The notes: generated from the letters alone by a model not told the origin. Shown: positions 9,044 through 49,176, numbered from the stretch's first letter. The stretch: DNA of 64,000 bases from an uncultured Selenomonadales bacterium (GCA_937877655.1 CALFJC010000176.1:4607-68606); one strand, 5' to 3'. A program made the numbers and translations.

Positions 9044-9102
9044 CGCAATGGAAAAACTTCGGACACCGATTTTATAGTTTTTATATGGAGGAATCCTTGA
9101 AC

Positions 9103-11511
9103 ATGAAGAAAAATTATTTTAAAAACTTACCCCCCCCCGATTATCGAATTTTAAAATGTCGCGGACAAGTTGCCGTGCTTTTCGCTGTGCTCATTCCGAT
9201 TTTGTTTTTATTTCTCGGAGTGGCTCTTGATCTCGGTTGGTACTATGTGAATGTCTCGCGCTTGCAAAATGCGGCGGACGCGGCGGCGGTTGCGGGTGCT
9301 CAAACTATCATGGACAGTGAATATTTTTCGGGCTATAAAAGCATCACGCTCGTCGGCAAATATCCCGCCAAAGTCAGCAACGAATACCGCGTAACCAATA
9401 TTTACGAGTTGACGGCGGTTGAAAACGGTAACAGCGTTGCCGAAGAATATGTCAACAAAAATCTGTCGAGCGAAAGCCACAGTTCGCTGACCGATTCTTG
9501 GACAAAAGCGGAGATTCAATCCGAACAAAAACTTTATGAGAAAGATGACAATCTTTATTACGTCGTCCGCTTGAAGGAAGAGATCAAACATTTTATGTTG
9601 CCCGGCTGGTTTGACGATATGGCTGCGCCCGTGACGGCAGTCGCTCTGATTTCAAAGCGGGCAGTTGTGAATTCTGCAGATGAAGATGACGTTGTCATTC
9701 CCGATGTTCCCGAAATTCCTTCCGGGGTTGACACCTCTGACGTCCCCGATACTCCAACTTTACCTGAAAAGCCCGAAACACCCGAAACACCCGAAACACC
9801 CGAAACAAATAATGTGACTTTGATATTTAATGCAAACGGCGGCACACTGCCTGACGGAACTACAAAAACGATAACACTTCAAGAAGATGAAGACGGAAAA
9901 GTTAATTCGACGGTCAATCAGTCGGCTGAACGCGAAGAGCATATTTTTTTAGGTTGGAACACGGCGGCGGACGGCAGCGGCAAATCTTATCAAAACGGCG
10001 ATAAGATAACTGAACAAGATTTCAGCGGCGGCAGCCTCACGCTTTACGCACAATGGGCTGAAAATATCCCCGAAGACAACACGATACCCGAAGATGTAGA
10101 TACTGCCATTGAACCCGAAGTCGAAGGCAATTCGATTTACGCCGTCATGAGAAAAGGATATTATGCTGATCCGAACAACATAACCGGTTCCACGCCCGAC
10201 TATGAAGGTCACGAAATGACAAAGGTTTATAAAACTTGGATGAAAATTTATACTGAAGGCGGCTCAAGTCAATCGTATGCAGACGCTCGCTGTTTTTATC
10301 CCGATACCGGCGGCTCTGTTTACGACAGCGATTATATGCGCAAGGAAATAACTCACATAACTTCAAAAACGATTTACAAAGACAGATTCTTTCTCGATTT
10401 GGGCTCCGACTTAATGTATAATCACGGGCTGAGTGACACTGCCGGTGTAGGTCACGGCTTATTCGAGACGCGCTGGGATTTAAATTCCATTTTCAGCGAA
10501 GGCGGCGATACATTTACTTCGATAAAAAATCACGCCTACGCAAGCAGATATGACAGCAACAAAATAACTTTTAACTTTCAAAAGAAAACCACAACCACAC
10601 GTTGGGGACAAACTACGACTTCTTACAGTAAAATTTCCTCATCCGAAGGTAAGGAAGCAATTAAGCACAGAGTGCACACGCGATTTAATATCGACGGCGG
10701 TTTTTCGGGCACGAGTACCGATCCGCTTTGGTTCCGCATTGAGAGCGAGGAACTCAACGAAGGCGGCGGCGACAAACAAAATACAACAGTCCGACAAATT
10801 TTTATCAATGTGAACTTCGACAATACGAGCAACAGTTATCGTCCGCTGGTTATCTTTTACGACGGTCCCGACCGTGCGCAACTTGACGGCGATGTTGATG
10901 TAGGTAACAATCAAACGGCAAAAGAGAAATATCCGAATTTGAGAGTCCGCGATCCTCTGCCCGTAATTTTGAATCTCAACAAAGATTTCAAAGGAATTTT
11001 GTTCGCGCCGCACAGCCCCGTTGTTATTATCGGCAACGGACATAAAATGATTGGTTTTGTCGTCGCAAAAAGTTTCGTTCAGCTCGGCACGGCAGCAGGA
11101 AATAAAGTCAACGCAACGGGCAATGATCCTGAATTTTATGTCGACAGCTACGGAAATGTTTCTTTCGATACGTTGCCCACGAGCGTTATTCGCCGTCCTT
11201 ACAGCAAAGTTTTCAAGAATAAAGATAACGGAAGTTACACTGAAGAATATGACGAAAATACTTTGAATGCGGTTGAAGACAAATACAAGGAAGCGAATTT
11301 CGGTAACTTTGAATGGGTTTATAAATCTAAAGAAGCGTTCAATCTCAGCGAAAATTCTCGCTACGCCTCTTTTGGGATTCACGGCTTGAAAAGAAATATC
11401 TACGTATATCTGAACAGCTCGCAGGCAAGCGACACAACTTTAAGCGATCCGGGTTTCGGCAACTCTGTCGATATGTTCTTTACGACGGTACGTTCGAGAT
11501 GGGTTAAGTAA
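9103..11511 (+). CDS. TadE/TadG-like (Flp pilus-assembly N-terminal domain) large surface protein with a PET linker and a Listeria-Bacteroides repeat
   Basis: N-terminus VAVLFAVLIPILFLFLGVALDLGWYYVNVSRLQNAADAAAVAGA is a Tad-type hydrophobic segment. (PET)x4 at 9769-9805. NVTLIFNANGG...FLGWNTAADGSGKSYQNGDKI...LTLYAQWA is an Flg_new-type repeat. The C-terminal GILFAPHSPVVIIGNGHKMIGFVVAKSF is TadG-like. Confidence 0.7.
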   Translation: MKKNYFKNLPPPDYRILKCRGQVAVLFAVLIPILFLFLGVALDLGWYYVNVSRLQNAADAAAVAGAQTIMDSEYFSGYKSITLVGKYPAKVSNEYRVTNIYELTAVENGNSVAEEYVNKNLSSESHSSLTDSWTKAEIQSEQKLYEKDDNLYYVVRLKEEIKHFMLPGWFDDMAAPVTAVALISKRAVVNSADEDDVVIPDVPEIPSGVDTSDVPDTPTLPEKPETPETPETPETNNVTLIFNANGGTLPDGTTKTITLQEDEDGKVNSTVNQSAEREEHIFLGWNTAADGSGKSYQNGDKITEQDFSGGSLTLYAQWAENIPEDNTIPEDVDTAIEPEVEGNSIYAVMRKGYYADPNNITGSTPDYEGHEMTKVYKTWMKIYTEGGSSQSYADARCFYPDTGGSVYDSDYMRKEITHITSKTIYKDRFFLDLGSDLMYNHGLSDTAGVGHGLFETRWDLNSIFSEGGDTFTSIKNHAYASRYDSNKITFNFQKKTTTTRWGQTTTSYSKISSSEGKEAIKHRVHTRFNIDGGFSGTSTDPLWFRIESEELNEGGGDKQNTTVRQIFINVNFDNTSNSYRPLVIFYDGPDRAQLDGDVDVGNNQTAKEKYPNLRVRDPLPVILNLNKDFKGILFAPHSPVVIIGNGHKMIGFVVAKSFVQLGTAAGNKVNATGNDPEFYVDSYGNVSFDTLPTSVIRRPYSKVFKNKDNGSYTEEYDENTLNAVEDKYKEANFGNFEWVYKSKEAFNLSENSRYASFGIHGLKRNIYVYLNSSQASDTTLSDPGFGNSVDMFFTTVRSRWVK

Positions 11512-20789: not shown

Positions 20790-23700
20790 ATGAGGAATGA
20801 ATTCAGTTTCGACTTGCAACGTTTTGACGGCGTTTGGAAAATCGCGGACGAAATTTATTCGACCTTTACCGACGCGCTCGCCGTCATTGCGGGCAACTCG
20901 ACAATAAGTTTAACGACAGATTCTTCCGAAAAAGTGAACGGCACAATCCCCGCCGACACCGTAATAGATTTGGGCGGCAACACCTGCACAATCACGGACG
21001 GAGCTTTGACGCTTGGAGATAATGTCACTTTCACGAACGGCACTTTAAATATCGAAGGCGGCATTTTCACGGGCAATTTGAATTTCGGCGCGGGAATGAC
21101 TGTTTCAATAACGGGCGGCAATTTTTCCAATGATGTTTCGGCTTATCTTGCCGAAAATTTTTCGCTCTATCAAATTGACGAGACTTATACCGTTATCGAA
21201 AATGCCGTGCTGAATCTCGACTTGCCCGTTTCCTCCGCACGGGAAACCGCCACTTCGTATCCTATAACAATTCCTGCCGGCGGCAAAAGCGCAGTCATTG
21301 AAATCGGCGGTGTATCAAAAACCATCATATCAGGCGCGACAAATGCCATAACTGTTTCCACAGTTTCGGGCGGCGCGGTTGTAACGCTTTCAAATCCCGG
21401 CGAAGATTTTTATGTAAATGACGATACTTACAGAACTTATAAGCTGAACACTGCCGGCAGTAACGGAATAGTTTTAACGCTCGGTTCGGGCTCGGCGGTA
21501 ACAGTCGGTTCGCTCGATAAAAATGATGTCTTTTCGATTAACGACGAAAAATTTTCAATAACTGCTCTGGGAGTTTTTTCGGGTTATGACAGCGTCAACA
21601 CTGCCGACAAAATGATTTTAGGATCGTTGCCTTCAACTTTGGCTTTGACAGGTTCGACGCCCGACAATTTATCTTCCGCCTCAACTACTGATTGGTATAA
21701 AATTGTTGAAGTTGACAAAGGCGTGCTCAACATTACCGGCGCGAGCGATTTTGATACTTTGGCAGATTCTTCTTATTATAAAGGAGTTATCGCCGTCGAC
21801 ACCGACGGAGATACGGACGCCACACGCATTTTTTATGCCGAGCTCTCCACAACCGCCATAAAAGGTCAAAAATATATGATCTCGTCGATTACAAGTGCTT
21901 CGGTCGACAGTTCACTTGAAGGTACACTTTCAAACATTTATATTGCTTCAGATGTTTTGAGCGGCGGCGTTGTTTTTACGGAAAATTTTGCGGCTTCGTC
22001 AGCTTCTGCTCCGACAATAACGACGGATAACGCAACTTTTCACGTAGACAGTTCTGAAGGCTATTTCGTTTTGTCGGGCGGCACGACCATTCCCGTTTCT
22101 TTGAACAGTTCGGCTAAAGAAATTTCTTTAATCAGAGGTTCTTTGACTGCCGCCGTCACGGATCAAACTGTCACGACAGACAAATACACAATTTCTTCTT
22201 ATACGGGCGGCACTTCGGGCGACGGCATAGAATTAAACAGCGACAGCAACGGCAACGTTACTTTGGGCGATTTGGATGTCGGCGAATCTTTTTATTTGAC
22301 AAACGGATCTGTTTCCTCAACCTACACGATGACAAAAATCGGTTTGGTAAACAACGACGGCGAACTTTTGTTAAGACGGGGAACTTACAGCGGAATTAAA
22401 GAAAGTATCTTGCCCGTTTCTCTAATCACCAACGCAACGGAATACACTCCGCTTTATGCCTCCGAAGACATTGTCTCGATAACGGGAAATTACTCTTCAA
22501 ACCCTACGCTCATTTCCTGCGCAAATAATGCTCTGGCATCTCTTACTTACAACTCAAGCAGAAACATTTACAATCTGTCCACAGATTACGATACCGACGA
22601 ACTCGATTTGGGAAATTGGGCGGGAATTTACTTAAGCAACAGTGCAACGGTAAGTTTAAGCAAAGCCTTTATTGATGATGAAGAACCTTTGAGAATTACA
22701 ACGGGCAATTCATCGGGAACCATTGCCAATTTTGCCATTACCTCTCTTAAATCCGGTTCTGCAACGGGCACTACCTTAACCGGAAGTTCCACTTCTCTTC
22801 AAACCCTTTCTACCGACGCGGGAATAGCGGAAGTTCGTTTGTTCGGCGGCAGTTTTGTTTCTTCAAACTCAACCAAAGTCAATGTTTCGCTTAGTAATTC
22901 CGAAGATATAGACGTTACATCATCCTATTACACTGTGACGATATCCTCTGATTTAAATGGGGCAACCATGATCTCCGATCCTCGCAGTAATTTCGCGGTT
23001 GGAAGAGCTTCGCTCAGAAGTTCGGCGACATTGATAACAGACAGCGACGGCACTACAAGCATTGTTTCGGGAAAATATTTCAACATTTACGATTCGGCAG
23101 GTTTCTCCGATTCGGATTCACATGCCGAATATTCTTCGATAAGCGGCAATGTGACTTTCATATACGATACGACCAACGGCGGCGACGTATACGCTACGGA
23201 TTTGCAATACAATTCCACAACCTCAAACAACGATGTATTTCAATGCATCAAAGATGGCGACACCATTACCTACACAATGGTGAACAGGAAATTGCAATAT
23301 GAAAGTAAAAATACCGGCGGCAAAAAAGTTTGGATTAATGACGAAGGCAACAGCAATATTCGTTCCGGAACTCATGTAAATCTGAACGACGATTACTTCA
23401 GAAAAATAATTTCCTCTTCGGGCAAACTCACCATTCCTTCTGCCGCTTCCGATATGGATGACGGAGAAACCGTTCTTATTGTCGCCGAAGATCTCGATCT
23501 CGATAAAAGTTACGGCACTTTGACAAAGACGGATGAAACTCATTACAATCTTAATCAAAGTGATTCGGATAATTACGATTTGAGCGACATTGTAATTACC
23601 GACAGCTCTACCGTAAATTTCAGCGAAGATTTTTACAAAACCAACATTAATCTTTACGTCAGCAATAAAAAACAAACTTCCTTGCGCTCCGAAACTGCAG

Positions 23701-26700
23701 GCATGAGTTTTGCCGTAAGCGGCAGTGACGGCGTGGCTTACGTCACGGGCGCAAATGAAGTCAGCTTGATTAGCGGCACAATTTTAACCGACGATTCTTC
23801 TCAAACGATTTGGATGGGAAATTATTCAGTTTCAGCCAACCCGAACGATACGGTATCCGACGGCTTAAATGTAGTTGTGACAACTCTTCAAGGAAGTGTC
23901 GGCACATTTCAAATTGTCAATGACATTGATTACAACGAATCATTCATTGTAAACGGTATTGAATATAATCGCGGCGCATTGGGCTTGACTTTTGATGAAA
24001 CCGTTTCGGGCACAACCGTAACCAAATTTTATAAAGGCGATTTAATTCTTTCGGGAAGTGAAACCGTCACTACTGAAAGCCAAGCCGTCGGCGTAATTTT
24101 GGATGATTTGTTTACTGACAGCTTGTCGGGAATTTTGGCGGCGGCAGAATCGGGAATATACACGGAAGATCCTTCAAAATATGTTTTTGCAATCGGCGGC
24201 GAGCACAGCGTAAATGCTCTGGTTGTTGACGATTTGGACAAACGTTCAAAGAGACATGCAGATCTTCAAGTTTCAAGCGGAAAGTATGTCTTGACTACGG
24301 TTGACAACAGCGAATCTTGGGCTAATCTCGACGCAATTTCTGTTGTGAGCGGCGTAACAACTATTTCCAGCGTTTTCACTTCCAATGCCGACGGCGAACT
24401 TGTTACGATTATGACGGCGGGCAGTTCCCAAAATTCTTTGGGAGCCTCCTTCTTCGTCACCAAATCAAAAAGAGATATTTTCACGTTAAACGGTCAAGAT
24501 GATCGACCGACAATCGGCAACGCAACGGCATTAACTCTTTTGGACGGCGTGATAACTGCGACAAATACTCAAACCATAACGATCGGCGAGGGAGATACTA
24601 CCTTTCACTCGGCGGCGAATATGGGAATTTCCTTCGACAAAGAAAACTCGGAGGCGAGTTTAACCGCTGCCACAGGAAATGCCTTTACAGTCGACGGCGA
24701 CACTTACAGCGTTGTTTCGGGCAACGGAATGGACTTTTTCGTCGGAGAAGACGGCGGAGTTACCGTTGAAGGTTTGACTTATGCCGGCGGAGACGTTTTC
24801 ACTTACAACGACTCAACTTATTATCTGAAATCGACGGGCTTCGTGAAAAAAGATGCCTCAAATTATTTGTATCGTTGGGATAAAACCGATGATCATTCTT
24901 TGGCAGGCGGCTCGGTTGCAATTTCTGATCTCGAAACAAGCGGTAACTGGCAAGGTATTGTTACAATAACAAACGATACCGCTACAGTTGTTCCCTCCAG
25001 ATTCCACAGCCCGACGACAACTTTGATGGATAAAAATTTCAAAAATACCTACGGCACTTTGGAATTTGTCACGAACGGAATTTACAGCTTGTCGAAGGAC
25101 GCCGACGACTCCGCTACTCTCTCGGCAATTAATATCACATCAAAGAATATAAACACTCTTTCTGTTGACGAAGATTTTGAAGGCTTGACAATCTCTTACA
25201 ACAATTCATCCGTTAAAGTCGGAGATCTGAAAGCCGACAGCGACGATTTTTATCAAGTCTCCATTTCCGGCGGCATAATGGGTCTTTCGGGCGTGGCAAC
25301 TGCCTCGCTGATAAGCGGTTCGTTGCTGGCGGACAGCAATGTCGGAGTTTCTGTTTCCGTCAACAGTACTTACGGCACAGAATATATCAGAGCAGGCGGC
25401 TCGGCAGTAATAACTTTGATGGGCGGAACTGCCGCTGTCATTTTGGATCAAGACGATTATTTCTCCATAGGTACGGAATCCTACACTTTAGGCAAGCTGG
25501 GCTTGGCAAATGAGGATAAACAACTTTTAGTCAACGTTGACAGCAACGGCAAAAAATTTGTAGTAACAACAGCTTCAGGGCAAAATGAAACAATCGGCTT
25601 TGCTACCATTGCAAATCAAGATAATTGGTGTGATCTCCTCGCTCCCGAAAACGGAGTTTTGACAATAAGTTCTGCGCTTGAACTTACATCTTCACTTGAT
25701 CATTTTGTTATTGTCAATGATGACAAGACTCCCGATTATTATTACGGAAAACTTACTCAAGATACTTCTTCGGGCGGCTATTCCTTAGAAACAATGACAG
25801 GTGCCGATTCTGCTCTTTGGCCTACAAGCGATACTATTTTGGTTGACAGCTCGGTTGTCACGCTCAGCAGTGATTTCCAAAAGAGAAATATTGCGGGCGT
25901 AAGGTCGGAAGCTGCTTTCGTCGTCAATGACAGCGGAAATAATTCCTTTACCGTAGCCGATACAAGAAACGGCGCGATTATAAATGATGCAACAAAAATT
26001 TCTCAGACAGACGGCACAATCATTGCAAGTGCAAGAACTCAGACTATTACGGCGGGCAGCGCGCAAATTTCAAACTACAACACCGGCGACAGCATAAAAG
26101 TTGTTGTCGACGGTGACGACGCCAGCATTGCCGCTTTGAACAACGGAGATATTTTCCTTGTCAACGGCACGCGCCACACAATGGCAACGGATCAAAAACT
26201 CAGAACTGCAAACGAATTGTTCAGAGAAACTATTTCCGGCAGTGTTGCAGTCTCCGATTTGGTAAACGACGATTATTGGTACAAAATTATCAGCACGGAT
26301 ACCGAAGGTGCTCTTACGATCAGTTCTTCGACAACAAGCATTTTGTCCGACGGAGATTCGGCTTACATAATCAACGGAAGCGACATCGATACAATTTACG
26401 GATCACTTACAAGAACGACGCTCGGCGGCTACAGCTTGAGCAGAAATGACGATTTGAGTCAAAGCAGTAAGTCAACCTTAACGAGCATAGTTTTGGATGA
26501 ATTCCCCTTGAGTTTGACTTCCGATTTTAAAAATATCCCAATCATTTCGGGCAAAACAACTTTGCAGGCGACGACAACCGATGATGTCTTTGCTTTGGAT
26601 TATGATAATTATGTTGAAGTTTTCAATGCCGACGGAGTTTCTTTGGGCGGCGGCACGCTGAAAACTTCCGATTCAAATCAGACAATCCGCGCAGGCAGTT

Positions 26701-29700
26701 ATCGAATTCACGGCTTGAGTTTCACGGGCTCGGACAGCGCAATTACCGTCATAAGGAGCGGAAGCGTTGTCAAAGTCGGGGAACTTAATGTCGGCGAAAG
26801 ATTTGTTGTCGGCAAAAAAACTTACAGAGCTACTGCCGTAGGTTTGATTGAAGAAGATTCTTGGAAAATCTGCGACGATGACGGATATGATATTGGTTCG
26901 GGCGTTTTTACTGTCGATTCAAATTTTGAAAGAGATATTATCGGCGTTGAAGAAAAAGAACTCAATCTTTCCTCTCAAGCGGGCGCGGCGGTTATCGTTG
27001 ACGACATAAATGCTCCGACAGCCAGAATTGCCGATTTGGATTACGATTCGACGAGCGGCTTTACCGTCACGAGAAATTATGACGATTCGCTTACTTCAAT
27101 CGCGCTGGGCACAAATACAATCGGTCTCACGACAAAATTTAATACGACGGTTAGGACGACGCAAAGCGGCAACAATCCTACTTTCACTGTGAATAAAGAT
27201 CGTTACAAGTCGGCAAATGCCGCGCTGACGATTCAATCGGGCTCAAGCGACAATAATTCTTCGTTAATAAGCGGCGCGGTTGTTCTCGATACGGATACAA
27301 GCGCAGTCAAAACTTCCGACGGAGTAATTTCTTCCGTAAGCGGCGGCGAATTGATTTTCACGGCGGCGGCAGGTTCCGTCGCAACACTTTCCGGCTTAAA
27401 CAACGGAGATAAATTTGCCGTCAACGGCGCGTCCTACAGCGTGACGGGAGCAGGTTTGCTGACCGAAACTCAAATTTGGACGCCCTCAACTTATGAAAGC
27501 GTTTTGCTCGACGAAAACACAACCAACGGCTTGTTGAATACTGAAGACAACTGGGATTATATTGTTGCAGTTTCAAACGGCGCACTTGCAATTCCGCCGA
27601 CGGGATATCCGCAAAATGTGGAAGAATGGATTATTTTAAGCGAAGATTTGAATTCCAGATGCGGCACTTTGAAAGGCTCGGACGCCGCCGGCTATACTCT
27701 CGCCGCAAGTTCTTGGGATACAATCAACGCAATAAGCATTAACAAGGGCGGAATTTCTGTTGCTTTCCCGTCAAAGAGTTTCCGCAACGTCACAATCGAA
27801 GGAGCAGATTCGGGCGCGACGTTCAGAATCACGGACAATAAATCTTTCACCGTGACTGACGGCATAAACGGCGCGAGCATAACCAACGCAACAAGAATTT
27901 CTCAGTCAAGCGGCACAATCGCTTTAACCGATACAAATCAGACAATCACGACTTCCGCAAAGCACAGCATAAACGCCGGCAACGAAGGCGACGGAATAAC
28001 TGTCATTATCGATTCCGAAGGAGAAAAAGTCGGCGCGTTGAGCATCAAGGACACGCAGGACACTTTCACAATCGATAACACAGTTTATGAAATGCTCCCC
28101 AACGGAAGCATTCATCGCCCGACGGTAAGCAAATTCTGGACGAAAAGCATTTTGGAAGACGACAGCTCCATTTTGATTGATGATCTGCAGAACGAAAGTT
28201 ATTGGGGCGGCTATATCACAATCAGCGGCGGCGTGTTGAAAATTACAAGAGATGTTCTCGGCTCTTGGTCTTCGGCTTTTGTTGTCGATGAAAATGTTTC
28301 GACAAAAATTTACGGCACACTCAGCAAATCAAGCACGGGCTACACTTTGAACGGCGCGACTGCGATTTTGAGTCTCAGCAGTATCGAAGTTTTGACGGAA
28401 GCCCAGCCTGTAAGTTTGACTTCGGATTATGTGGACGTTTCGATTAAAGCGGGCAGTACCTACTTCAAAGCGACGGAAGCCGCGAGCGGTTTCAAAATCA
28501 ATTACACGTCCTCCGAACTCACTGCAGATGATGCAACGGCAATTACTTTGCTTGAGGGCGATTGGACATTGAAAGATGCCAATCAAGTTCTTACGGCGGA
28601 CGGACAGGTAATTCAAGTCGGCGGAACGAGTTCAACCATTTCCGTAAATTACGACGGCGCAAATATTGTAAACGTCACGGGCATTGACGCGGCGGGAGAG
28701 ATCGTCTCAATCAGCGGCAAAAAATATGAACTCACGGCGGGCGACGGAATCAGCGTCAACATTAACGACAGCATTCAAACCGTCAACGACATTTCGGAAG
28801 ACGATGATTTTTCAATCGCGAACGACAGATTTATCAAGAAAGAACCCGGTTTCATAAAATCCAACTCGAAAAACTATCTGTGGACGGCGGACGGAGATGT
28901 CACGGCAGGAATTTCTGTCGCCGAACTCAGCGATAATGACGAAAATTGGTCGGCGGTCGCAACGGTTGCAAGTGATGAAATTGTTATCGATAAAAATTCT
29001 TCGACGGCAATTCTTATCGACAGCGTAACCGATTTAAGCAAAATTTACGGCTCGTTGACTGTCGAAAATGACACTTACACTTTGACGAACGATAAAAATA
29101 ACGGAGCAGACCCCGCTTTAATTTCGATTAATAATGTTGTCGCGAGTCTCACTTCCGATTTTGCAAAAGTTCCGATTAACGCGGCGGGAGCATCTTTTGC
29201 CGTAACCGCTTTGACTTCCGGAAATAAATTTTCTGTCGACGCAACGGATACTTTTGCTGTTGTCGGCAACGCATCTAAAGTCAGTTTGACTTCGGGAACT
29301 CTGGCTGATTTGACGAAGGCAACGACCGTAACCGTTGATTCTCAAAGTGTTGCGGCAGGAAAAAATTCCACAATCAATGTCGGCTTTGACGGCTCGGAAA
29401 TTACTTTCAGCGAACTCGATAACGGCGAAAGTTTTTCCTTCGACAAAAACACTTACACTTATAAAAATGTCGGCGTCGTCAAGGGCGGCAGAACTCTCTT
29501 TGTAAACGATACACTTGACGGCTCCGTTACGGATACAATCCTTGAAGACTCAACCAATTTCAAAACAATGTTTTCTTCCGACGGCGCAACTCTCACGCTC
29601 CAAAGCAAAGCAAGCGGAGTTTTTGTCGACAGCGCGAGCACAGCTGTTTCAGCAGTTTATGCCATACAAGATTATGACAGCGCAAATAAAATTTATTCCT

Positions 29701-32700
29701 TCGCGCAGATTGCCGACGCAGATTTCACAATCGACGCCGCAACTTTGACTTCGGGCGGAAGTATCAGCGCGCCTTTCGAGGCAAAAGTTCTCACGCCTTC
29801 AACGGGAACTTTCAACGTCAACGGAAGAGATTATATCGCCGCCGCCGATTTGACGATTGACACAACCGAAGATTCTTCCACTTTGAACAAAGGAACCGTT
29901 TCGCTTAAGTCGGGCGGCTTTGTCGACATGACAAATGTTGATAATGATGTTTCCGTTGTAAGCGGCGACGGCTTGAAAGTTTCTGTTGAAAACGGCAGTT
30001 ATACTCTCGGCGGACTCAATAAAAATGACGTTTTCGCAATCGGCGGCTACAGCTACACGATGAAGAGCAACAATTTCATTGTTCGCGAAGATGCCGGCGG
30101 CAACGAAGAAATTTATATCTCCTCCGTTGTCGGCGGAGCACTTGCACAGGAAATTATTGACGAGCCGGATTATTGGAATGCATATGTTACCCTTGATTCA
30201 AGCAATAATCTCAATCTCAACAGCACAATCACGGGCGGCATAGTCATTTCAAAAGATTTCTTGGAAATGTTCGCGGATCTCACCGTCAACAGCACAAATA
30301 ATTTTAATGTCAACGCTCTTGACGGCGCGGATACTTCGGGAATTAAAGCGATTAATCTTACTGAAGAAAATTCTACTCTGACGACAGATTTTGCGGCGAC
30401 AGTCAAAACCGCTTCGGGCTCCAACACTTACACGATAAACGATAATCCTTACACCGCAAAAAATTCCGCGCTTGAAATTTCTGCGACAAAAGATTCTTCT
30501 ACGATAACGAAGGGCATAATCACTCTTAATGATTCAACGGTAATGACGACGAGCAATCACACAATCAGCGGCTCGGTCGATGAAATTAATGTTGCGTCAA
30601 TGAAATTCACTCCTTCAATCAACGAAGTTTTCTCGGTTGACGGTCAAAGTTACACGATGACGGCTGTCGGTTTGACGAAGGGCGGAGCATCCATTTGGAC
30701 GAAGGAAAGCGATACTTCATACATTTTGCCCGATGATGATGCTTGGTCGAATATGGCGAGTTTGAGTTCCGAAGGCGTCCTCAATTTGAGAAACGGAGCC
30801 GCCGAAGGCAGTACCGTTATCATCAACAGCGACGGAACCAAACGCATGGCTTCACTCATTCGCAGCGACAACACTTATACATTAAATGCTGTCGGCGGAA
30901 ATTCGATAGCTGCGATTCAACTCGGCGACTCGACAACCGACACTTTGACGCTTACCGCAGATTTTGATTCTGATGTTAAGACGGGCAACGGCGTTTATAA
31001 AGTCAACGGCTTAACCTACAAAGGCAACGGGCTTACGATAAAGTCGGAAAATAATTCTTCCGCACTTTACGGCGGCACAGTCAATCTTTCTGCCGACGAA
31101 GATTATAATTCTGTCATTGACTACACGAACGGTTACAACGTCACGGCGACGGGCGGCGACGGAATTAATGTTGCGGCATCGGAAGGCACAATCACAAATT
31201 TAACCAACCTTAACTCCGGCGACACTTTCATAATCGACAATGTTTATTATAAAGTTCTCGCCAATCAAACTTTTGTTCAAACCGAAACCGACGGCACTCC
31301 TTCAAAGCTCTACGAGAATTTAATTTCGGGCAGTTCCTTGAAATACTCCGACATTGTCAACGAAGATAATTTTGTAAATCTTATCGGGCTTGAGGACGGC
31401 GTACTGGATCTTACACAGCTTTACGGCGAGGACGGTTGGTCTGCCGTTATCGTAGCCGACAAAACCAATCCGATTAATCGCGTTGCCAAAGTCAGCTACA
31501 GCGACGCCGAAGGTTATAAACTCGAAACAACTTATAACGGCGACGACACCAAAATAACTTCAATCAAACTCGGCTCGGCGGTAACAAGTTTCTCGACAAC
31601 GCTCGATAAAAATGTTAATACAACGGCGACGGTTACTTACACCATTAATGATAAATTGTTCACCGCGCAGGATGATTTGACGATAGTAACGGCTGACGGC
31701 GGAGCAATTCTCACGAACGGAACGGTAAGCATTCCCGAAGGTGAAAATTATTCCGTAACGACTCGCAGAATAAACAGCGGCACTCAAACCAATGAAACAA
31801 TTCAATCGACTTCGGGAACAGTTACAGTCAATGTCGACAACACTTCGGGCACAGTAACAATCGGCGGGCTTAATGCAAATGAAACTTTCACCGTCGACGG
31901 CACGGAGTACACTGTAACAAATATTGGCTTGCTGAACGAAGACAAAGATTCTCTCAATGCTTCCGTTGCCGACACTTGGACTGTCGCAACCACAGATTTA
32001 AGCGGCTCGAATTGGAGAACGATTCTTTCCGTAACAAACGGCGCATTGGATTTAACCTCAAACACTCCTTTAAATGTTTCGGTCGTCGATATTTCTTCCT
32101 ATACAAATGCTTTCAAGTACGGCTTCTTGACTTACTCCGGCGGCACTTACACTTTAACGCAGGACGAGAACGAGTCTGCACTTTCAAGCATTACGATAAC
32201 GGGCACAAATGCAACTTTCGGCGCGAAGGCTTCGGGCGTTCCCATTACTTCCAACGGCGCAACTTTCAGCGTTACGGCGACAGATAATTTCACAATCAAT
32301 GCGGCGTCGACTTCAAATCCGCCTGCCGTAAGCGATACAACTTCCGTAACAGGAATTTATCTCAGCGCGGGAACAATTTCGGCTCCCGCCGACATTCCGA
32401 TAACGGCGAACGGAAAATCTGTTACTGCGACTTCAGGCGATATGACCGTTACCAATTCAAGCGGCACAATCACGGTTGAAGGATTAAATTCCGGCGAAAC
32501 ATTCACTGTCGACGGCGTAAATTACAAAGTTACGACGGCGGAAAAACTTTTCGACATAACCGATGAAGATGAACCGCAAGAAGTCATTACGGGTTTTGCG
32601 GACGGAATTTTCACGATAGACAACGCCGAGTTCATGAGAATAATTACGCTTAACGGCTCGGAACTTGATCTTAAGGAACAAACTTCAGACGCTTATGTTT

Positions 32701-35700
32701 ATGACAATCTGACTGACCCGACGGTAAAATATGCCGCCTTGACCGTAACGGGCGGCAAAACCAAAACTCTCACGGGCGAAACCGACACCACAACCATTCA
32801 AACCATAAACATTGCCGAAAACGATAATTTGACTGTCGACTTTGATACGCGAGTTCATTCGGAAATTGGAAATGTCATCGTCAACACAAAATCTTATTCG
32901 GGAACAACCGAGCTCGTGATTGATACCGACGGCACAACCACAAATTCCACGCTTTACAACGGAACGATTAATCTCAACACGACCTATTCTTCCGCAACAG
33001 ATTTCAGAAACAATACTTTGGAGAGAACAAGCGGCAAAGCTTTCACGGCAACCGCAACCAACGGACGATTCACCGAAATAAACAATCTCGACAACGAAGC
33101 GGCATTCACTTACGGCGGAAAAACTTATACGCAGAGCATTCCCGGTTTGATTATCGCGGACGAAAAAGTTATTTGCACCGATATTCTCGCGAACGAAACC
33201 ATTGCACTTGCCGATTTGACTTCCGAAACTTGGATTGACTTCCGTGCTCCCGTCAGCGGCGTGCTCGACATCTCCGCGCTCGATGACACTTACATTATTT
33301 ATGACGATGAAAATAATCCCACAAAACAACTCGCAACCTTTACCGTTGCAAGCGACGGCAAAAAAACTCTAGCCGACCACGAAAATAATGCCGCGTCCGA
33401 AATTGAGGCGGTTGAAATTGCGGCGGGCGACGTTTTGGCTGTCGACTTCGTCACAAAAATTAATTCGCCGATTGGAGAAGTCACCGTCAACGACAAAACT
33501 TATTCGGGAACAACCGCGCTTGTGATTGACAGTGCAACCGACAGCGAAGGCGAATACACTTCGACACTTTATAACGGGACAATTACTCTCGACAGAATAA
33601 ATTCTTCCGCAACGGATTCAAAAGAAAATACTTTGACAAGAGAAGGCGGCGCGTCTTCGGACGCGGACGGAACATTTACCGCGACGGCGGAGAACGGACG
33701 GTTCACGATAATTGAAGGGCTCGACCCGACCGAAAGTTTCACTTATCGCAATGTTACCTACGTCCAGAGCGAGCAGGGCTTGAGGAACGGAGCTTTTATT
33801 CGCAAAGACCTCGCGGGCACAACAATTAATCTTTCCGATTTAAGCGGCGCATGGAGTAATATCCTCGCGCCCGTCAAAGGCGTGCTCGACATTTCAGAAG
33901 TTACTGAAGATGCTCTTGTTTATGACAGTGCAACAAATCCGACGACGCAACTTGCAACTTTCACCGTTGACAGCGGCAAAAAAACTCTCGAAGATTATGA
34001 AGGCAATTCTTCTGCCATAACAAAAGTTGAACTTGCGGCGGGCGATGATTTGACGATTGATTTCGCAACGAAAATTTCTTCGCCGATTGGAACAGTTGCC
34101 GTCAACGGAAATTCTTATGTCGGCACAACCGCGCTTGAAATTGATTCCGTGATTAACTCGGACGATACAAAAGATTCAACTTTGACGAACGGCACGGTTT
34201 CTTTGGCTGAAGAAGATGATTTTGTTAAAACGACGGGCGGCTCCACAATCACTTACACAACCGCCGGCGACGGAATGACGGTTAAAGTCGACAATTCAGA
34301 CGAGACGGAAGCAATAACTTTTGACGGCTTGACTTTGGGCGATACTTTCTCTGTCGGAGAAATTTCTTACAGAATTTCCGAAATCGGTCCCGTAAATTCC
34401 GAAGGCAAATTGTGGCACGGAAATTCTTACACGGAAGGAATAACTCTCGCCGCGATTGAAACGGAAAGTAATTGGACGTCCATGTTGGCGGCGACGAATG
34501 GAGCTCTTTCAATCAGCGAGAACACATTGGAGGACGGCGGAGAATTTATTGTCGTCGATAACCTCAACGACCCGACGAAAATTTACGGCGACTTAACCAA
34601 GAGCGGCGACACTTACAAATTAACGAGACCGACCAACGCAAACGATAATTTGTCTTCGATAAATGCGAGCGGCATTGAAATTGAACTTGCAAATAACTTT
34701 GCGGGCGTCAATCTTGTTGCAAACATCTCCGAAATTTCCGATACAACTTTGATCAATGCAAACAGATCTTTCACGCTCGATGCAACGGATACAACGCCGA
34801 GCCTTTCAAATATCAGTTCACTCACTTTGAACGCGGGAACAATTTATGCCGCCGTCAATCAAACCGTTACGGCAGGAAATAATGTAATCACTCCTTCAAC
34901 GATTAACGGCGATATGATTATCGGGCTCGACACAATCAGCGGCATTGTCGAAGGCGATATTTTCACACTCGGCGAAGACACTTATAAAATGACGCCGATA
35001 GGTTTGGTCAACGATACCGATTCTTCCAAAACTTTGGTAACGAACGGAATTGAAAACGGAACTTTGACTGTCGCCGATATTGAAGAGACTCCGCTTATCG
35101 CGGTAAGTTCTGCAGGCATGCTCAATTTGTCGAATGCAGTTGCGGGAGATTCAATCGTTGTCGACAGTTTGACTTCGCCCGAAAATATTTACGGCGCACT
35201 TAACAAAGCCGAAAATATTTATACGCTTTACGAAGACGGAACGGCAGACGGAATTAAATTTATCGCAATGCCTGACGCCGATTCAACTTTGACAACGGAT
35301 ATTGCCGCCGAAGTCGATACAAACTCCGGCTCGAACACTTATATTGTCAACAGCAAAAAATATATCGCGGCTGATTCTTCACTTGCTATTGATACCGACG
35401 GCACAACCACCAATTCAACTTTAACCGACGGAAAAATTTCTTTGGCTGAAGAAAATGATTCCGTAGAAACAACGGGCGGCACTTCGATCACTTACACAGC
35501 CGACGGCGACGGGATGACGGTTGCGGTTGACGGCACGGGCGAGACTGAAGAAATAACTTTCGACGGCTTGACTTTTGGCGATACCTTTACAATCGGAGAA
35601 ATTTCTTACAAAGTCTCTGCAGTCGGTCCGATAAATTCAGACGGCAAACTTTGGAACGGAAATGTTTACACGGAAGGAATCACACTCGCAGCGATTAACA

Positions 35701-38700
35701 CGGAAAGTAATTGGACGCCGATGCTCGTTGCAACGAACGGAGCACTTACCGTCAACGCGAACACTTTAGTCGACGGCGATGAATATGTTCTTGTCGACAG
35801 CACAACCGACCCGACAAAAGTTTACGGCGACTTAGCGAAGGAAGACGGCAAATACACTCTGACGAAACCTTCTTCAGCCACAGATGATTTGTCTTCAATC
35901 AGCGTAAGCGGCATTTCGATTGAAATTGCTCCCGATTATGCGGGCATTCCGCTTCTTGCAAATGATTCAAATTTCTCTGACATAACCTTAAGTGATGAAG
36001 AAGAAACTTTTACTCTCGACGCGACAAATACAACGCCGAGTCTTTCAAATGTCAGTTCGCTCACTTTGAATGCGGGAACGATTTATGCCGCCGAAAATCA
36101 AACCGTCACAGTTGGCGAAAATGTAATTCTTCCTACCGCGATTAATTCCGAAGAATCCGAGAGCGAAACTTACGGCAAAATGACAATCGGGATGTCGACA
36201 ATCAGCGGCATTGACGAAGGCGAATCGTTCACTGTCAACGGAACAATTTACAAGATGCTCAACACGGGCTTATTCAACGATACCGACAATAAACTTGTGA
36301 CGGAAGGATTTGACGCGGGCGAATTTACCTTCGGAGACTTTGGCGAAATTCAACTTATCGAAGTAAGTTCTTCGGGCGCACTCAATTTGTCAAATGTTTT
36401 TGTGGGAGATTCAATCGTTGTTGATAAAGTTGAAAGTCCGGCAAATATTTACGGCTCGCTGAACAGAAACGGAAATGCTTACACGCTTGAAAAAGAAGGC
36501 GACTCGGACGGAATAAAATTTATCGCAATGCCCGACGCCGATTCTACATTGACAACGGACATTTCTGCGACAGTCAACACGCCGTCAAGCTCGAACACTT
36601 ACACAGTCAACGGAAAAGAATATTCGGCGGCTAACTCCGCGCTTGTGATTAACAGCGAAGGCACAACTTCAACTTTGACGGACGGAAAAATTTCTCTGGC
36701 TGAAGAAAATGATACAGTTACGACGACGGGCGGCAATGTGATAACTTACACCACCGACAGCGACGGAATGACTGTTGCAGTCGACGGCACAGGCGAGACG
36801 GAAGCAATAACTTTCGACGGCTTAACTTTGGGCGATACCTTCAAAGTCGGAGAAAATTCTTACAAAGTTTCGGCAGTCGGACCGATAAATTCGGACGGCG
36901 AACTTTGGAATGGAAATGCTTACACGGAAGGAATCACACTCGCGGCGATTGACACGGAGAGTAATTGGACGCCGATGTTTGTTGCAACGAACGGAGCACT
37001 TACTGTCAACGCTGAAACTCTTGCTGACGGCGAAGAATTTATTGTTGTCGACAACCTCAACGACCCGACGAAGATTTACGGCGACTTGACCAAAACGGAC
37101 GGCAAATACACTTTGACGAGACCGACCAACGCCACAGATGATTTGTCTTCAATCAGCGTGAGCAATATTGAAATTGAACTTGCGAATGACTTTGCGGGCG
37201 TCGATCTCGTTGCAAATGCCTCCGAAATTTCCGACACGGTTTTGACTAACGAAAATAAATCTTTCACACTTAACGCGACGAATACCACGCCGAGCCTTTC
37301 AAATGTCAGTTCGCTCACTTTGAACGCGGGAACGATTTATGCCGCCGAAAATCAAACAGTCACGGTTGGTGAAACGACAATTCTTCCGACTTCGATTAAC
37401 GCCGAAGACTCCGAAGCTGAAGAATACGGGAAAATGACAATCGGGCTTGACAAAATCAGCGGCATTGACGAAGGCGAATCGTTCACCGTCGACGAGACAA
37501 TTTACAAGATGCTCAACACAGGCTTATTCAACGACACCGACAACAAACTTGTGACGGAAGGATTTGACGCGGGCGAATTTACCTTCGGAGACTTTGGCGA
37601 AATTCAACTTATCGAAGTAAATTCTGCGGGCATGCTCAATTTGTCAAATACACTTGCGGGAAATTCTCTTGTTGTCGATAAAGTTGAAAGCCCGGCAAAT
37701 ATTTACGGCAAACTTAATCGCAACGGAAATGTTTACACGCTGGACAAAGAAGGCGACTCGGACGGAATAAAATCTGTGACGATGCCGAATTCAACTTCGA
37801 CTTTGACAACAGATATTTCCGCGACAGTCAACACGCCTTCAAGCTCGAATACTTACACCGTCAACGGCAAAGATTATTCGGCGGCTGATTCCGCACTTGT
37901 GATTAACAGCGACGGCACAACTTCAACTTTGACGAACGGAAAAATTTCTCTGGCAGAAGAAAATGATTCTGTTACGACGACGAGCGGTTCTATCATTACC
38001 TATAAAACTGTTGACGGCGACGGAATGACTGTTCAGGCGCGGACAAGCGGCAACGTAACTTTGGGCGGCTTGACTTCGGGCGACGCTTTCAAAGTCGGAG
38101 ATGATTCTTACAGAGTAACAGATCTCGGCTTCCACAACGGCAACGATTATCTGTGGACGAGCAATTCCAATTTCAAAAACGGAGTCTCCATTTCCGACAC
38201 GGGCACTGACGGCTTAAATAACTCCGACAACTGGACAAGAACCGTTGTTGCCGAAGACGGAGCACTTTCCGTCAAAGCCAATACTCTTGGCGACGGCGAA
38301 TCCGCAATTATCATTAACAGTTCGGCAAATGCGACGGCGACGCTCGGCACTTTGACAAAAACTTCCGACGGCTACACTTTAACCACCGATTCCGACGACG
38401 AAAAACTTTCAAGCATTTCTGTTGCCGGTACAAAACTCACAATCGCCGAAACCCTCGCCGATGTTCCCGTCTCGGCTCTCAAGGCGACGTTCACGGTTAC
38501 GGCTGAAGATCCTTTCACTGTCGACGCGACGGGCGATAATGTTTCAATCAGCGAAGACGCAACCGCCATTGAAATTTCCAAAGGCACAATCACTGCGACG
38601 ACCGCGCAGACCGTCACGGCAACCGAAGATTCGGGCAGTACAAAAGTTATCGTTCAGGATAACGGCACTTTCAATATCGGCGGCGAAGAATTCCTTGTTG

Positions 38701-41700
38701 CGGATAATCAAGATGATTTAACTTTCGGCATGACAAACGGCGTCCCCGATTCTGTCGACAAGCTTGAAAAAGATGCAAAAGTTACGATTGACGGAATAAC
38801 TTACACCGCGCCCGAAGACGGCTCGACTTTGAAATTTGCCGAAGAAGACGGCTGGTATTTCGACGGCTACATTCCTTCGGGCAACAAATATAATTTGACT
38901 GTCGACGGCAACGGAAATATCACGGTTGACGCGGGAGTAAAATTCACCGACGTTGTGGCGAGCGGAAAAACTTTGCCGTCCGACGGCGTGATAAAACTCG
39001 CGGCGGACATTAACAACGTTGCAGTCAACGTCACAAACAACGGCTCAACGCCAATCGCCATCAACGACAAAGATAATAATCCTCTCGTCGAAAATCTCGG
39101 CAGAGTCAAAAACGTTACCTTTGACGAAGCGGGCGTTATGGTTGAAAAAACTTCCGACGTTGCGGGCGCATTGTTCACAATCGATGTCGGAAAGAGTCTC
39201 GAAACCGAAACGGCAACGGTTACTTCAAATGCAAACGATTGCGAAGTCGGAATTGGTTCGAACGGAACTTCTTTCAGCATAGAAAAATCTGCGACGGTTG
39301 ATGCTCCCGTTAATACCGCGCTGACTCTCGGCAAGGCAAATTACACGGTCAACGGCGTAGAATTTTCTGCAAGCGGCACCGCGCAGGCAAGTATCACTTC
39401 GGCGGGCGTTAAAGTCGATTTGGTTTTAAGCGACGTGATAACTTATGAACAAACAGACTTCGACGGCACGGGCACTGCAACTGCCGACATTGACAAAGAA
39501 GGCGGCGTAAGTTTGACGAGCGGCGCAAGTGTTGCAGGCGCGGCGGGTAAAGCTCTCAACATTTCCGGAACAATCACTCTCGAAGCAAATACGATTGAGG
39601 CGGCGACTGCAACCGACGTTACGGCGAAAGCCGCCGGAATTGCCGTTGCCAATGATGATGTAACAGTTACGGGCGACGACAACGGCTATAAAGTCAACAT
39701 TGCCGAAGGGAAAATCACGGGGCTTGAAAAAATCGGCGGCTCGGACGGCGTCACGCTCGGCGGACTTTCAAACGGCACGATTAAAACCGATAAAGTCGGC
39801 GCGTTCACTGTGGCGGACAGAACTTTCACGGCGATTGGAGATGCCTCCGTCACTTACGGCATTGAAGACGGAAAAATTTCTTACGTCAACGACGTTGACA
39901 GCATTTTAAGCGGCGATTTCTCCGACGGCTTGGAAGTCAACGGCGGCGAAATTAAAATTACGGGCGAAAATGTAAGTCTCCGCGCAGATTCCGACACCGA
40001 CAGAGAAATTCTCGGCATGAAGAATAATTCGACGCTTACGACGGCGGAAGGCGTTACGAAAGTCGAACCGATTGGCGCGGGCAAATTCACTTTCGGAGAT
40101 CATACTTTTGAAACAGACGATTCAACAATTTCTTTCAATCTCTTAAACAGTTCGGTAAGAGGAATTGACAGCCTTGAAAGCGGCAACTTAATAATTTCTC
40201 AAGACGAAAATAATCTTGCCGTCAACGACGAAAATATTTCTTTGGAAGATATAAATTCGCCCGTGACGCTCGGCATTTCCGACAGCGATATTTCTTCGAT
40301 TTACGGGCTTAACGGCGGAATTGCGGGGCTTGATAATGCAACTGTCTTCGGACTTTCGACGGCGACCGTCAACGGAAAATTCTTCGACATAGAAGGCGAC
40401 GTTGTCAACGCAATTATTGTCGACGGAGATGTTCCGAGTCTTTACGGCTTGGACAGCGGCGCGACAGTCAAGAGTGCTCCGAATATCAACGCCCGCACAA
40501 CCGCGAACGGAACTTTCATTTTCCGCGACGACAAATACAATATCAACGACACGCTGGACGGAGTTGTTGTCTTCAGCACAAACATTAACAGCTACGTTAC
40601 GAATATCGGCGAGTTTGAAGGCTCAATCAGCGGCAATTTGGAAGAGATAAAACTCAACGATAAAGATTTCAATTCGTCAAGCGACAAAGTCACGGTTGCA
40701 AACGACGGCACGGACGTTATCGCGATTCACGGCTTGTCGAACGGCGACACAATCAGCGGCAGTCTTTCCTACGCAACTTATCTCATGCCCGAAGGAACTT
40801 TGACAGTCAATGAACAAGTTTTCATTCTGCGCGGCGATGATAACGGCGTAAGCATTTCGGGCGACGGACAAATTATTCTCGGCTTGGATAAAGACGCCAG
40901 CTTGACGGTTGCGAAGGGCGGAGACTTCAGCGTAAACAGCAACACTTTCGACGACGCTCCCGACGGCACAACCTTTATTGCGGGGCGCGACGGAGTTTAT
41001 ATCTACGATCCGAATAACAAACCGATTCACGAAATAACTCCCACCGACGACATAATTAAAAATCTTATCGGCGAGGCAGAGCCGGGCACGATAAGTTTAA
41101 GCGGCGATTCGGCGGCGTCCGTAATTGCAAGCGGCGAACTTGATTCTCCGATGGCTTTGACTTTGGACAACGCGACGGGCGCAAGCGTCCAAGTTGCCGA
41201 CTTCAGCAACAGCAAATATGCAAAACGCGTTACGCTTCTCGGCGGAGATCAAGATATTAAATTCAATGACGAAGGCAAAAATGCGGCGCATGTTGCCCCC
41301 GACGCGACTGGCAGAAAAAATATCGAGCTCGGCGACGGCGGCGATGTTGCGGTTAATGACAGCCCCTACGCAAAAGTTTCAATCAAGACGGGCAAAGGCG
41401 CAGATACAATCGTTAATCGCAAAGGCGCGAGCAGTACCGTTGACGTTAAGGAAAACGGCGATACAACGATTGTTCCGACTTCGGGCAGAGTGACGCTCCA
41501 GAATTACGACGAGAAAAATAACGCCAAGATCAGAAGCTTTGAATATGTCGACATGATCGGCGCGATTAAGAGCAATGAAATAAAATTCGGCGACGGCTTA
41601 ATGACTTTGGGAGATGCGGTTGTTGTCTTTGATCCCGAAGCCAAAGAAAAGGGCGGCACTTTTGCAAACCTTGTCGATTATGCGGGCGAAGAACACCGCG

Positions 41701-47589: not shown

Positions 47590-49176
47590 ATGAACAGAGT
47601 CAACGTCTTTGTGAGGCGGCGGCGAATAAAAAATCTGGAGCAGTGGACGCTTTACGCCATTTTGACCGAAGCATTTTTCCTCGCGCTCTCGGAAACTGTG
47701 GCGGCGGCGGCAGTCATGTTCGGCGTCATGACATGGTTTTTGCGCAGTCAAATCGATTCAAAATACAAAATTCGCTCGTTGCCCTTTGATGTGCCCGTTT
47801 CGATTTTCCTTTTAATCGGCGCGGCAAGCGTTTTGCTGTCTTCGGCGCGAAGTCTCATGCTGATTTACAATTACTGTACACTTGTCGGCATTTACGCCTT
47901 GACTTATCTAATCGTCGGACAAACAATCCGCACTCCCGCGCAGGTTAAGCAAGTCGCACAGGCACTCGGAGCTTCGGCAATTTTGGTCGTGTTATGGGGA
48001 TTTTTCCAATTCATCTTCGGAATAGACCCGGCGGACGTGAAATGGACTGATCCCGACGCCTTCCCCGAACTTAAAAAACGAATCTTCTCGACGCTGGAAA
48101 ATCCAAATGTGCTGGCGGGCTATCTGAACATTTTTATTTGCTTGTCGCTCGGCTTTTTGTCGAAGGCGGAAAAACGCTCGCAGAAATTAATTTTAATCGG
48201 CGCGATAATTTTACTCGGTACATGTTTGATAATGACTTACTCACGCGGCGCATTCCTGACATTGGCGATAGTTTTGGCGATTTACGGCTTGTGGCAGGAT
48301 TGGCGAGTTTTAATTTTGTTCGCGGCAGTCACGGCTTTAATCGGCTACAGCGACTCCGCCTTTATGAACAGAATTTTATCGACATTTACAATGAGTGATT
48401 CTTCCGAAGGCGTCAGAATAGGAATTTGGGTTAGCACAAGCGCAATGATTTCAGATCATCCCTTCGCAGGTATCGGCTGGGGAGCTTATCAATTCGTTTA
48501 TCCGCAATACAACTACTACATTTCCGATCCGAACATTATTATCTATCACGCGCACAACATTTATCTGAATTTCGCCGCCGAAACAGGGATTGTCGGGGCT
48601 TTGGCTTTTTTCTGGTACTTTTTCGGGACAATGTTTGTTTCTTTCGGCGTGAGCCAACGCGGCGCGGAAAAATGGTTTGCCGAACGCTTGGAAAAAATTT
48701 TTGCGTCAAATAATTTTTTGCAGGAAATGGCAACCATTTTTAATGAAAAGCTCGCCGTTTTCTCAAATCTGTTCTTAAATCTCTTCGCTGGGGAGAAAAA
48801 GCCGCTTAAACTTAAAAAAATTCGTCGTTCCAATGTGATTCATAACGAAGAAATGAATTTCAGCGAACATACCCGCAAAAAATTCGCCGAAACCGAAATT
48901 TCCGACGAAAAAACTTCCGAAGAAACTTCAAACGAAGAAATTTCCGACGAAAAAATTTTTACAGAATCGGAGAGAAAATCACCACTCGCTTTGAAGGACG
49001 CAATGAATATTGACGATAAAAAATTTCTCGACGGATTCAGGCTCGGTATCGGGCTGGCGTTTTTGTCAATGGCTTTGAACGGCTTTACCGACGATTTACT
49101 GTTTAATATCCCGACCTCAATGTTAATGTGGATGCTCGGTGCATTGAGCGCGGCTATTAACTTAATTAAAGAATAA
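47590..49176 (+). CDS. O-antigen ligase (Wzy_C) family membrane protein with an acidic Ser/Glu-rich insert
   Basis: Ten or more hydrophobic segments, a YSRGAFLTLAIV loop region and an acidic stretch ETEISDEKTSEETSNEEISDEK before the last TM segments. Confidence 0.7.
   Translation: MNRVNVFVRRRRIKNLEQWTLYAILTEAFFLALSETVAAAAVMFGVMTWFLRSQIDSKYKIRSLPFDVPVSIFLLIGAASVLLSSARSLMLIYNYCTLVGIYALTYLIVGQTIRTPAQVKQVAQALGASAILVVLWGFFQFIFGIDPADVKWTDPDAFPELKKRIFSTLENPNVLAGYLNIFICLSLGFLSKAEKRSQKLILIGAIILLGTCLIMTYSRGAFLTLAIVLAIYGLWQDWRVLILFAAVTALIGYSDSAFMNRILSTFTMSDSSEGVRIGIWVSTSAMISDHPFAGIGWGAYQFVYPQYNYYISDPNIIIYHAHNIYLNFAAETGIVGALAFFWYFFGTMFVSFGVSQRGAEKWFAERLEKIFASNNFLQEMATIFNEKLAVFSNLFLNLFAGEKKPLKLKKIRRSNVIHNEEMNFSEHTRKKFAETEISDEKTSEETSNEEISDEKIFTESERKSPLALKDAMNIDDKKFLDGFRLGIGLAFLSMALNGFTDDLLFNIPTSMLMWMLGALSAAINLIKE

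Follow-up and report, generated by a model that had tools for sequence, protein, structure and literature searches.

A new repeat-domain family in a giant, probably surface-exposed protein of Selenomonadaceae

Here we describe a protein module of about 205 residues that is repeated 26 times in tandem within a giant gene of an uncultured Selenomonadaceae bacterium, and to which nothing in the collections of families and structures searched is detectably related. The gene lies on a stretch of 64,000 nucleotides (GCA_937877655.1 CALFJC010000176.1:4607-68606), which we call the window throughout; coordinates are positions in the window, and every feature placed on it below lies on the + strand. 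The repeat-domain family is new, and the protein that carries it is of a recognisable kind. We think it probable, with some reserve, that it is a lineage-specific rigid extender domain, restricted to the Selenomonadaceae, of a giant surface fibre that is probably secreted by a type I system. Bacterial attachment and aggregation, and what phages and grazers meet on a cell, are governed by giant repetitive surface proteins, and the giant proteins of the rumen Selenomonadaceae, those of uncultured Quinella included, are annotated only as "hypothetical".

An array of 26 diverged modules

The giant gene (20790..43328) sits in a single open reading frame of 22.5 kb (20754-43328). Its real start is the ATG at 20790, which has an AAAGGAG ribosome-binding site 8 nt upstream and corresponds to the Met at which the N-termini of the homologues also begin. 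Residue numbers given here were counted from nt 20754, and this Met is residue 13. By translation the protein is 7,512 aa long, with a mass of 788 kDa and a pI of 4.05; it is made up to 23% of Ser and Thr, is rich in Asn, contains 8.9% Asp, and has 8 Cys among its 7,512 residues.

The modules occupy aa 254-5969 (21513..38660). In an earlier reading of the same sequence, the original prediction, at least 25 instances of a short patterned segment had been counted and several of them quoted. Every quoted peptide is present in the translation. A hidden Markov model (HMM), started from a single seed module and iterated, recovered 26 full modules with E-values between 1e-26 and 1e-67, which bears the count out. 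Modules 1-13 begin at nt 21513, 22269, 23247, 23922, 24789, 25443, 26136, 26781, 27393, 28050, 28788, 29412 and 30012, and modules 14-26 at nt 30609, 31206, 31866, 32481, 33084, 33717, 34326, 34941, 35565, 36207, 36819, 37461 and 38067. Their lengths range from 198 to 326 aa with a median of ~210, and we take ~205 aa (21 kDa) as the nominal unit. A partial 27th copy (aa 6043-6118; 38880..39107) matches profile positions 94-167. The core hairpin, written as a strict regular expression, occurs at 19 sites, mostly spaced ~200-215 aa apart. In a cross-validation, modules 1-13 alone were used to build an HMM, and it recovered every one of the 13 modules from 14 to 26 (E 9e-9 to 2e-40). Shuffling the repeat region 20 times gave 0 matches. 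The repeat is therefore not a product of chance.

The repeat is present at the protein level only. Tandem Repeats Finder reported no DNA repeat with a period of up to 500 in the region, and in the alignment of the array the median pairwise identity between modules is 22%. The modules are old, and the only recently duplicated part is modules 20-25 (34326..38066), three copies of a two-module (A/B) unit that are 59-81% identical, against the array median of 22%. An alignment of 440 near-complete instances from 93 proteins gave three consensus landmarks, GLd.GesFtv.g.tYtmt..GL, nW...i...dG.L.l and vvDd...pt..YatLt.....YTLt, together with two further conserved blocks, stLt.GTV.l.....tVtt and GdGitVtv..G...tIggL. 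All three landmarks named in the original prediction are consensus features, and they form the main blocks of both the array alignment and this larger one. The prediction had also proposed a three-part supermodule; the three conserved landmarks stand, but profile-profile comparison of sub-segments shows no significant internal repeat. Many of the conserved positions are Gly, aromatic or aliphatic, and some are Asp and Thr.

Other proteins carry the same module. When 1.84 billion representative proteins were scanned in full with HMMER, 135 matched at E <= 1e-3, and 62 of these also at E <= 1e-30; single proteins have as many as 28 matched stretches and are up to 7,076 aa long. The named members are all "hypothetical protein" entries from metagenome-assembled genomes (MAGs) of Selenomonadaceae and from Quinella sp. 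2Q5, Quinella being a rumen bacterium (PMC9585023); the relatives of our host are rumen types such as Quinella, and the Quinella genome paper makes no mention of adhesins, RTX (repeats-in-toxin) proteins or giant proteins. The weakest matches, in a gammaproteobacterium and in a "V8-like endopeptidase", cover only a hairpin-sized piece and were not counted as members. Word-index homologue searches under-report the family when set against the full HMMER scan (1 homologue with the module profile, 5 with the C-terminal region and 0 with the N-terminal region), and a scan of genome contigs with a single protein led to one locus only. Complete members share a short N-terminal leader, a variable number of modules and a conserved C-terminal region of ~1,550 aa. 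Module copy number varies between these conserved N- and C-terminal parts, from 11-23 in complete relatives to 26 here, and from 0 to ~28 across the family; at the lower end stands P0005, a protein of 1,625 aa with the same leader and C-terminal region and zero modules. The repeat family is absent from the domain databases and solved-structure libraries searched. Its definition, which comprises 440 aligned instances, their consensus and a model of high confidence, could be deposited as a new one and used to annotate more than 100 metagenomic proteins.

Search for a known domain or fold

The original prediction held that the module could not be assigned to any known domain, and named Big, cadherin, FN3, VCBS, Calx-beta and beta-helix repeats as types that it did not match; both statements are supported by our searches. 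When the whole protein was compared with Pfam-A (24,736 models) and NCBIfam, no family reached its cut-off, and the same was true when 25 units were scanned singly. In both kinds of scan the Pfam families Big, cadherin, FN3, Calx-beta, VCBS and CW_binding were absent even at E <= 1. Two families came up repeatedly below threshold: DUF6406 (PF19944) on 4 of the 25 units, with a best E of 0.003 and 23.4 bits against a cut-off of 26.9, and PTSIIA_gutA, the glucitol IIA family of the phosphotransferase system (PF03829), on 2 of the 25, with at best 16.8 bits against a cut-off of 25. The likeness is confined to the GDxFxVxxxxYxVTxxG hairpin, with weak matches spanning ~25-55 residues and some 25 residues round the core hairpin alike; unlike a family relationship, it covers only this hairpin, in 2-4 of 25 units, and it has no structural counterpart. 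The sole result of the module profile against all PDB sequences was a borderline match to a liver-basic fatty-acid-binding protein (E 0.0017), which was set aside because the structural comparison with Foldseek gave just a single row of the fatty-acid-binding or lipocalin kind in its favour, at E 9.8.

A two-module segment (aa 4503-4945; 34260..35588) was modelled by AlphaFold as one body, with a predicted local distance difference test score (pLDDT) of 80.8 and a predicted template-modelling score (pTM) of 0.73, and confidence is highest in a stretch that takes in the final third of module 20 and the first two-thirds of module 21. Since this stretch crosses the boundary between the two modules, the units were re-cut in a shifted phase, and on the re-phased alignment the unit at aa 4848-5071 (35295..35966) was modelled with a pLDDT of 91.2 and a pTM of 0.83. 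This model is all-beta, with ~21 strands and short helical turns only. The confident structural unit is thus out of phase with the motif-defined module, and the predicted unit is compact, all-beta and packs across module boundaries. Mean-field coevolution analysis of the 440 instances gave a noisy signal, too weak to yield a topology, in which the top pairs join AlphaFold-predicted strands, one group within strands 1-10 and another within strands 11-20.

Against the PDB, Foldseek found nothing at E <= 0.001; the best E was 0.54 for the two-module model and 2.2 for the single unit, with template-modelling (TM) scores of at most 0.23. Against BFVD, the single unit likewise had no match at E <= 0.001 (best E 0.59). 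Neither immunoglobulin (Ig)-like, cadherin, FN3 or beta-helix structures nor solved RTX-extender structures were among the Foldseek matches. A search by hhalign between module sub-segments showed no significant internal duplication, and the lone match (probability 74%) is the deliberate column overlap of two segments and not an internal repeat. Across Pfam-A, NCBIfam, the PDB and BFVD, then, the module matched no known family above threshold and its models had no Ig-like match; a significant family match or a standard Ig-like fold were the two outcomes that would have told against the prediction.

A probable stalk of a surface fibre, and other readings

Two further lines of evidence bear on the kind of protein in which the modules reside, namely its C-terminal end and its rate of evolution. 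The last ~530 residues (41724..43325) have a weak RTX character. GGxGxD-like nonapeptides were found by regular expression at aa 7025 and 7417, with two or three consensus-like copies in all, and aa 7399-7473 (42948-43172) resemble RTX block V of CyaA of Bordetella (PDB 5cvw, E 9e-4) and also match a "hemolysin" (9p0c); nowhere else in the protein is there a significant similarity to a PDB sequence. The family HemolysinCabind (PF00353) is recorded on the homologues P0005 and P0006. The very end of the protein, ...DGSxYTADHxxGxWxKK, is conserved in relatives.

The rate of evolution could be judged from a syntenic locus of a related species (L004, 10001-16381 and 16537-18006). Between the window and this locus the neighbouring valyl-tRNA synthetase (ValRS) is 96% identical in protein and 87% in nucleotide sequence, with 139 synonymous and 22 non-synonymous codon differences. 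For the giant protein, identity is 68% (72% in nucleotides) over the C-terminal 2,100 aa, which comprise the last three modules and the C-terminal region, and 45% over the collinear module array. From these identities, 96% in ValRS against 68% and 45% in the syntenic giant gene, we conclude that the gene is an orthologue and changes much faster than the gene beside it. This steep local difference in rate is surface-protein-like evolution, and we count it for the fibre.

In the reading that we favour, 26 tandem all-beta modules of ~205 residues each would form the rigid stalk, or extender, of a cell-surface fibre. As the two-module model (pTM 0.73) is most confident across the module boundary, the array seems to be one unbroken rod and not a chain of separate beads. 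No Sec-type signal peptide was found in the protein, whose N-terminus MRNEFSFDLQRFDGVWKIADE is without a hydrophobic core; export would bypass the Sec route and proceed, most likely C-terminus first, through a type I secretion system of this diderm Firmicute, a route suggested by a composition that is acidic and poor in Cys and by the weak RTX character of the C-terminus. Both the rod geometry and the secretion route are what we infer rather than observe. The array would then be a spacer, and would hold the 1,500 non-repeat residues of the C-terminus, which are probably the part that binds a ligand, away from the cell. If the rise of RTX-adhesin extenders, 3-5 nm per 100-residue sandwich (PMC7493085), is applied here, the projection may be ~0.1-0.3 micrometres from the cell, which should be read as an order-of-magnitude guess. 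The conserved Gly, aromatic and aliphatic positions, with some Asp and Thr, fit a structural role better than a binding one.

The closest parallel is with the RTX adhesins of the LapA, MpIBP and SiiE type. Like them, the protein is giant, very acidic, Cys-poor and without a signal peptide; its central tandem beta-rich repeats make up most of the mass and vary in copy number among relatives; and a distinct non-repeat region with Gly/Asp-rich RTX-like repeats stands at its C-terminus. The differences are also considerable. The central extender of an RTX adhesin is normally a string of 10-15 kDa beta-sandwiches (PMC7493085), whereas the unit here is ~205 aa (21 kDa) and matches neither an Ig-like family nor a solved extender structure. 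The repeats are only ~22% identical, the RTX signal stays below the Pfam cut-off, no adjacent secretion genes were found, a leader resembling a cleavage signal takes the place of a retention module with a LapG-type site, and the host is a diderm Firmicute and not a proteobacterium. If the fold is new and rod-like, it would stand in contrast to the extenders of proteobacterial RTX adhesins, which are Ig-like and stiffened by Ca2+.

Several observations weigh against this reading. Support for the rod shape comes solely from the pTM and pLDDT of predicted models. A LapA-type N-terminal retention module was not recognisable in Pfam, NCBIfam or PDB sequences, and genes of a type I secretion system (ABC transporter, membrane-fusion protein, TolC) were found neither in the window nor beside homologues at three other loci (L001, L002 and L003). 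The RTX signal is weak, HemolysinCabind reaching E 0.006 and 16.9 bits against a cut-off of 23. Finally, the modules resemble one another far less than do the extender repeats of MpIBP or LapA, and such inter-module divergence could mean that individual modules have functions of their own.

This last point leads directly to the view that the modules are themselves ligand-binding, lectin-like or adhesin-like units, and that the protein binds plant polysaccharide, other microbes or host surfaces in a multivalent way, its specificities differing from module to module. Besides the strong divergence (a median of 22% identity), the conservation of the aromatics F, Y and W in each module and the fast divergence of orthologues (45% in the array against 96% in ValRS), as expected of interaction surfaces under selection, would suit such a binder. 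Many of the conserved positions, however, are Gly or hydrophobic and strand-like, and no conserved polar cluster is evident, though without a systematic examination; moreover, 0-28 copies between conserved ends is typical of spacers, and neither Pfam nor Foldseek brought up any similarity to a lectin or carbohydrate-binding fold or family. We consider a binder quite unlikely. We give as little credence to the possibility that the fold is not new at all, but a diverged pair of bacterial Ig-like sandwiches, or else a beta-hairpin solenoid of the CROP (combined repetitive oligopeptides) or cell-wall-binding type, lying below detection. Here the size of the unit is suggestive, 205 aa being about twice the 10-15 kDa RTX extender unit (PMC7493085), as is the separation of the coevolving pairs into two strand groups, 1-10 and 11-20. 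Yet Foldseek usually detects Ig-like sandwiches locally, and with a model of pLDDT 91 it gave none at E <= 0.001 and no TM above 0.23; the Pfam families Big, cadherin, FN3, Calx-beta, VCBS and CW_binding are missing at the most permissive threshold used, and hhalign sees no internal duplication that a pair of sandwiches might have left.

The solenoid version of this idea draws on the short hairpin with its Gly-x-x-aromatic turn (GDxFxVxGxxYxV), which the module shares with the CROPs of clostridial toxins and with choline- or cell-wall-binding repeats, and whose xGxxY motif recalls hairpin repeats. It also draws on the top rows of the Foldseek search, which, insignificant as they are, belong to elongated beta proteins (TcdB, TcsL, SRRP and OspA), the two toxins heading the list for the two-module model; in that comparison with the PDB the rows for TcdB, TcsL and SRRP have E 0.5-0.7 and TM <= 0.15. 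A period of ~205 aa is nevertheless far from the 20-30 aa of the CROP and CW_binding solenoids, and there is no CW_binding match, no Foldseek row below E 0.5 and no periodicity in hhalign. It seems to us very unlikely, lastly, that the protein is no adhesin but a self-associating part of the envelope, a coat, sheath or fence against phages or protozoal grazing, whose modules serve lateral packing. Such a part could well be huge and fast-evolving, as this protein is, its family is confined to the Selenomonadaceae, with named members from MAGs and Quinella, and at every locus examined the gene lies amid housekeeping genes with no adhesin or secretion operon; but variable repeats between conserved termini, together with an RTX-like end, match fibrillar adhesins better.

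Leader peptide, second repeat and neighbouring genes

The N-terminal leader is a separate lead. It consists of 12 residues, MRNEFSFDLQRF (20790..20825; aa 1-12 counted from the real Met), and its family consensus MxxFxFDLQRF, of 11-12 residues, is near-invariant in 31 family proteins, with divergence starting right after it. In these 31 proteins DLQRF followed by A, D or N stands at residues 8-13, which is 1-2 positions off the published cleavage motif of the protease Prp, MLxx(D/N)LQ(F/L)F'A (PMC9405229). The leader resembles this Prp/L27 cleavage motif, and in the peptide MRNEFSFDLQRFDGVWK a putative Prp cut would fall after F12. Among the substrates of Prp, which comprise the L27 leader, the capsid and scaffold proteins of phage 80alpha and, as a proposal, FlhB, the leader is close to the motif itself, to L27 of Synergistetes (...FFDLQFF'AHKK) and to gp47 of phage 80alpha (...LNLQHF'A) (PMC9405229). 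It differs from them in the Arg before the final Phe and in the residue after the putative cut, which is often Asp or Asn and not Ala, and its carrier is a giant, probably secreted protein. The string FDLQRF was not found in the literature searched, and neither rpmA nor prp was found in the 64-kb window. That a Prp-like leader takes part in the processing of a giant secreted protein in outer-membrane Firmicutes is a testable hypothesis. A bolder version of the fibre would join both leads, in that the modules would have a new fold with copies interlocked into a continuous rod, and the protein would represent an unrecognised class of giant fibres in diderm Firmicutes whose Prp-type leader is removed. 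We regard this combination as speculative and rather unlikely; if true, the family would be the first non-ribosomal, non-phage cellular one, apart from the proposed FlhB, to use a Prp signal.

Between the leader and the array lies a non-repeat region of ~230 aa (20826..21512) that could be given no family assignment: the N-terminal 241 aa had no match in Pfam, NCBIfam or PDB sequences, and a word-index homologue search with them was also empty. On the other side of the array, aa 6290-6719 (39621..40910) hold a second repeat of ~78 aa in ~6 copies, with the pattern G.FTFGD..Y.I.GD..V.F...G.V..I..LE.G. It has no Pfam match, and it is kept in all relatives examined (P0002-P0005), the module-less P0005 included. 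A link by descent between this repeat and the 205-aa module was suggested by an iterated search and rejected as profile drift, because an HMM built without any module sequence scores at most ~6 bits on the module array.

The neighbours of the giant gene in the window are housekeeping genes, encoding the gamma and beta subunits of oxaloacetate decarboxylase, ValRS, FolC, Rex, a protein with an HPr domain, RNase R, UvrC, a PASTA kinase, FtsH and LepA. Between folC and rex lies a gene for a Wzy_C (O-antigen ligase-like) membrane protein (47590-49176); together with the OmpH/Skp genes at L001 it is consistent with a diderm Firmicute that bears lipopolysaccharide. Some 11 kb downstream of the giant gene, a protein of 458 aa (54535-55911) consists of the catalytic domain of a protein glycosyltransferase of family GT41 and lacks TPR repeats. 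SPINDLY and O-GlcNAc transferase match it at E 5e-38, and HMW1C-type adhesin N-glycosyltransferases are more distant matches. A link between this protein and the giant protein was considered and dropped, as none of the homologues in L001-L003 has a GT41 gene nearby. Directly 3' of the GT41 gene, with stop and start codons adjacent, follows a gene for a putative restriction endonuclease of the Uma2 family (55912-56502). At 9085-11511, finally, the window encodes a protein of 808 aa that combines an N-terminal TadE/TadG-like pseudopilin segment with a Listeria-Bacteroides (Flg_new) repeat, and that is unusually large for a pilin-like protein of the Tad type.

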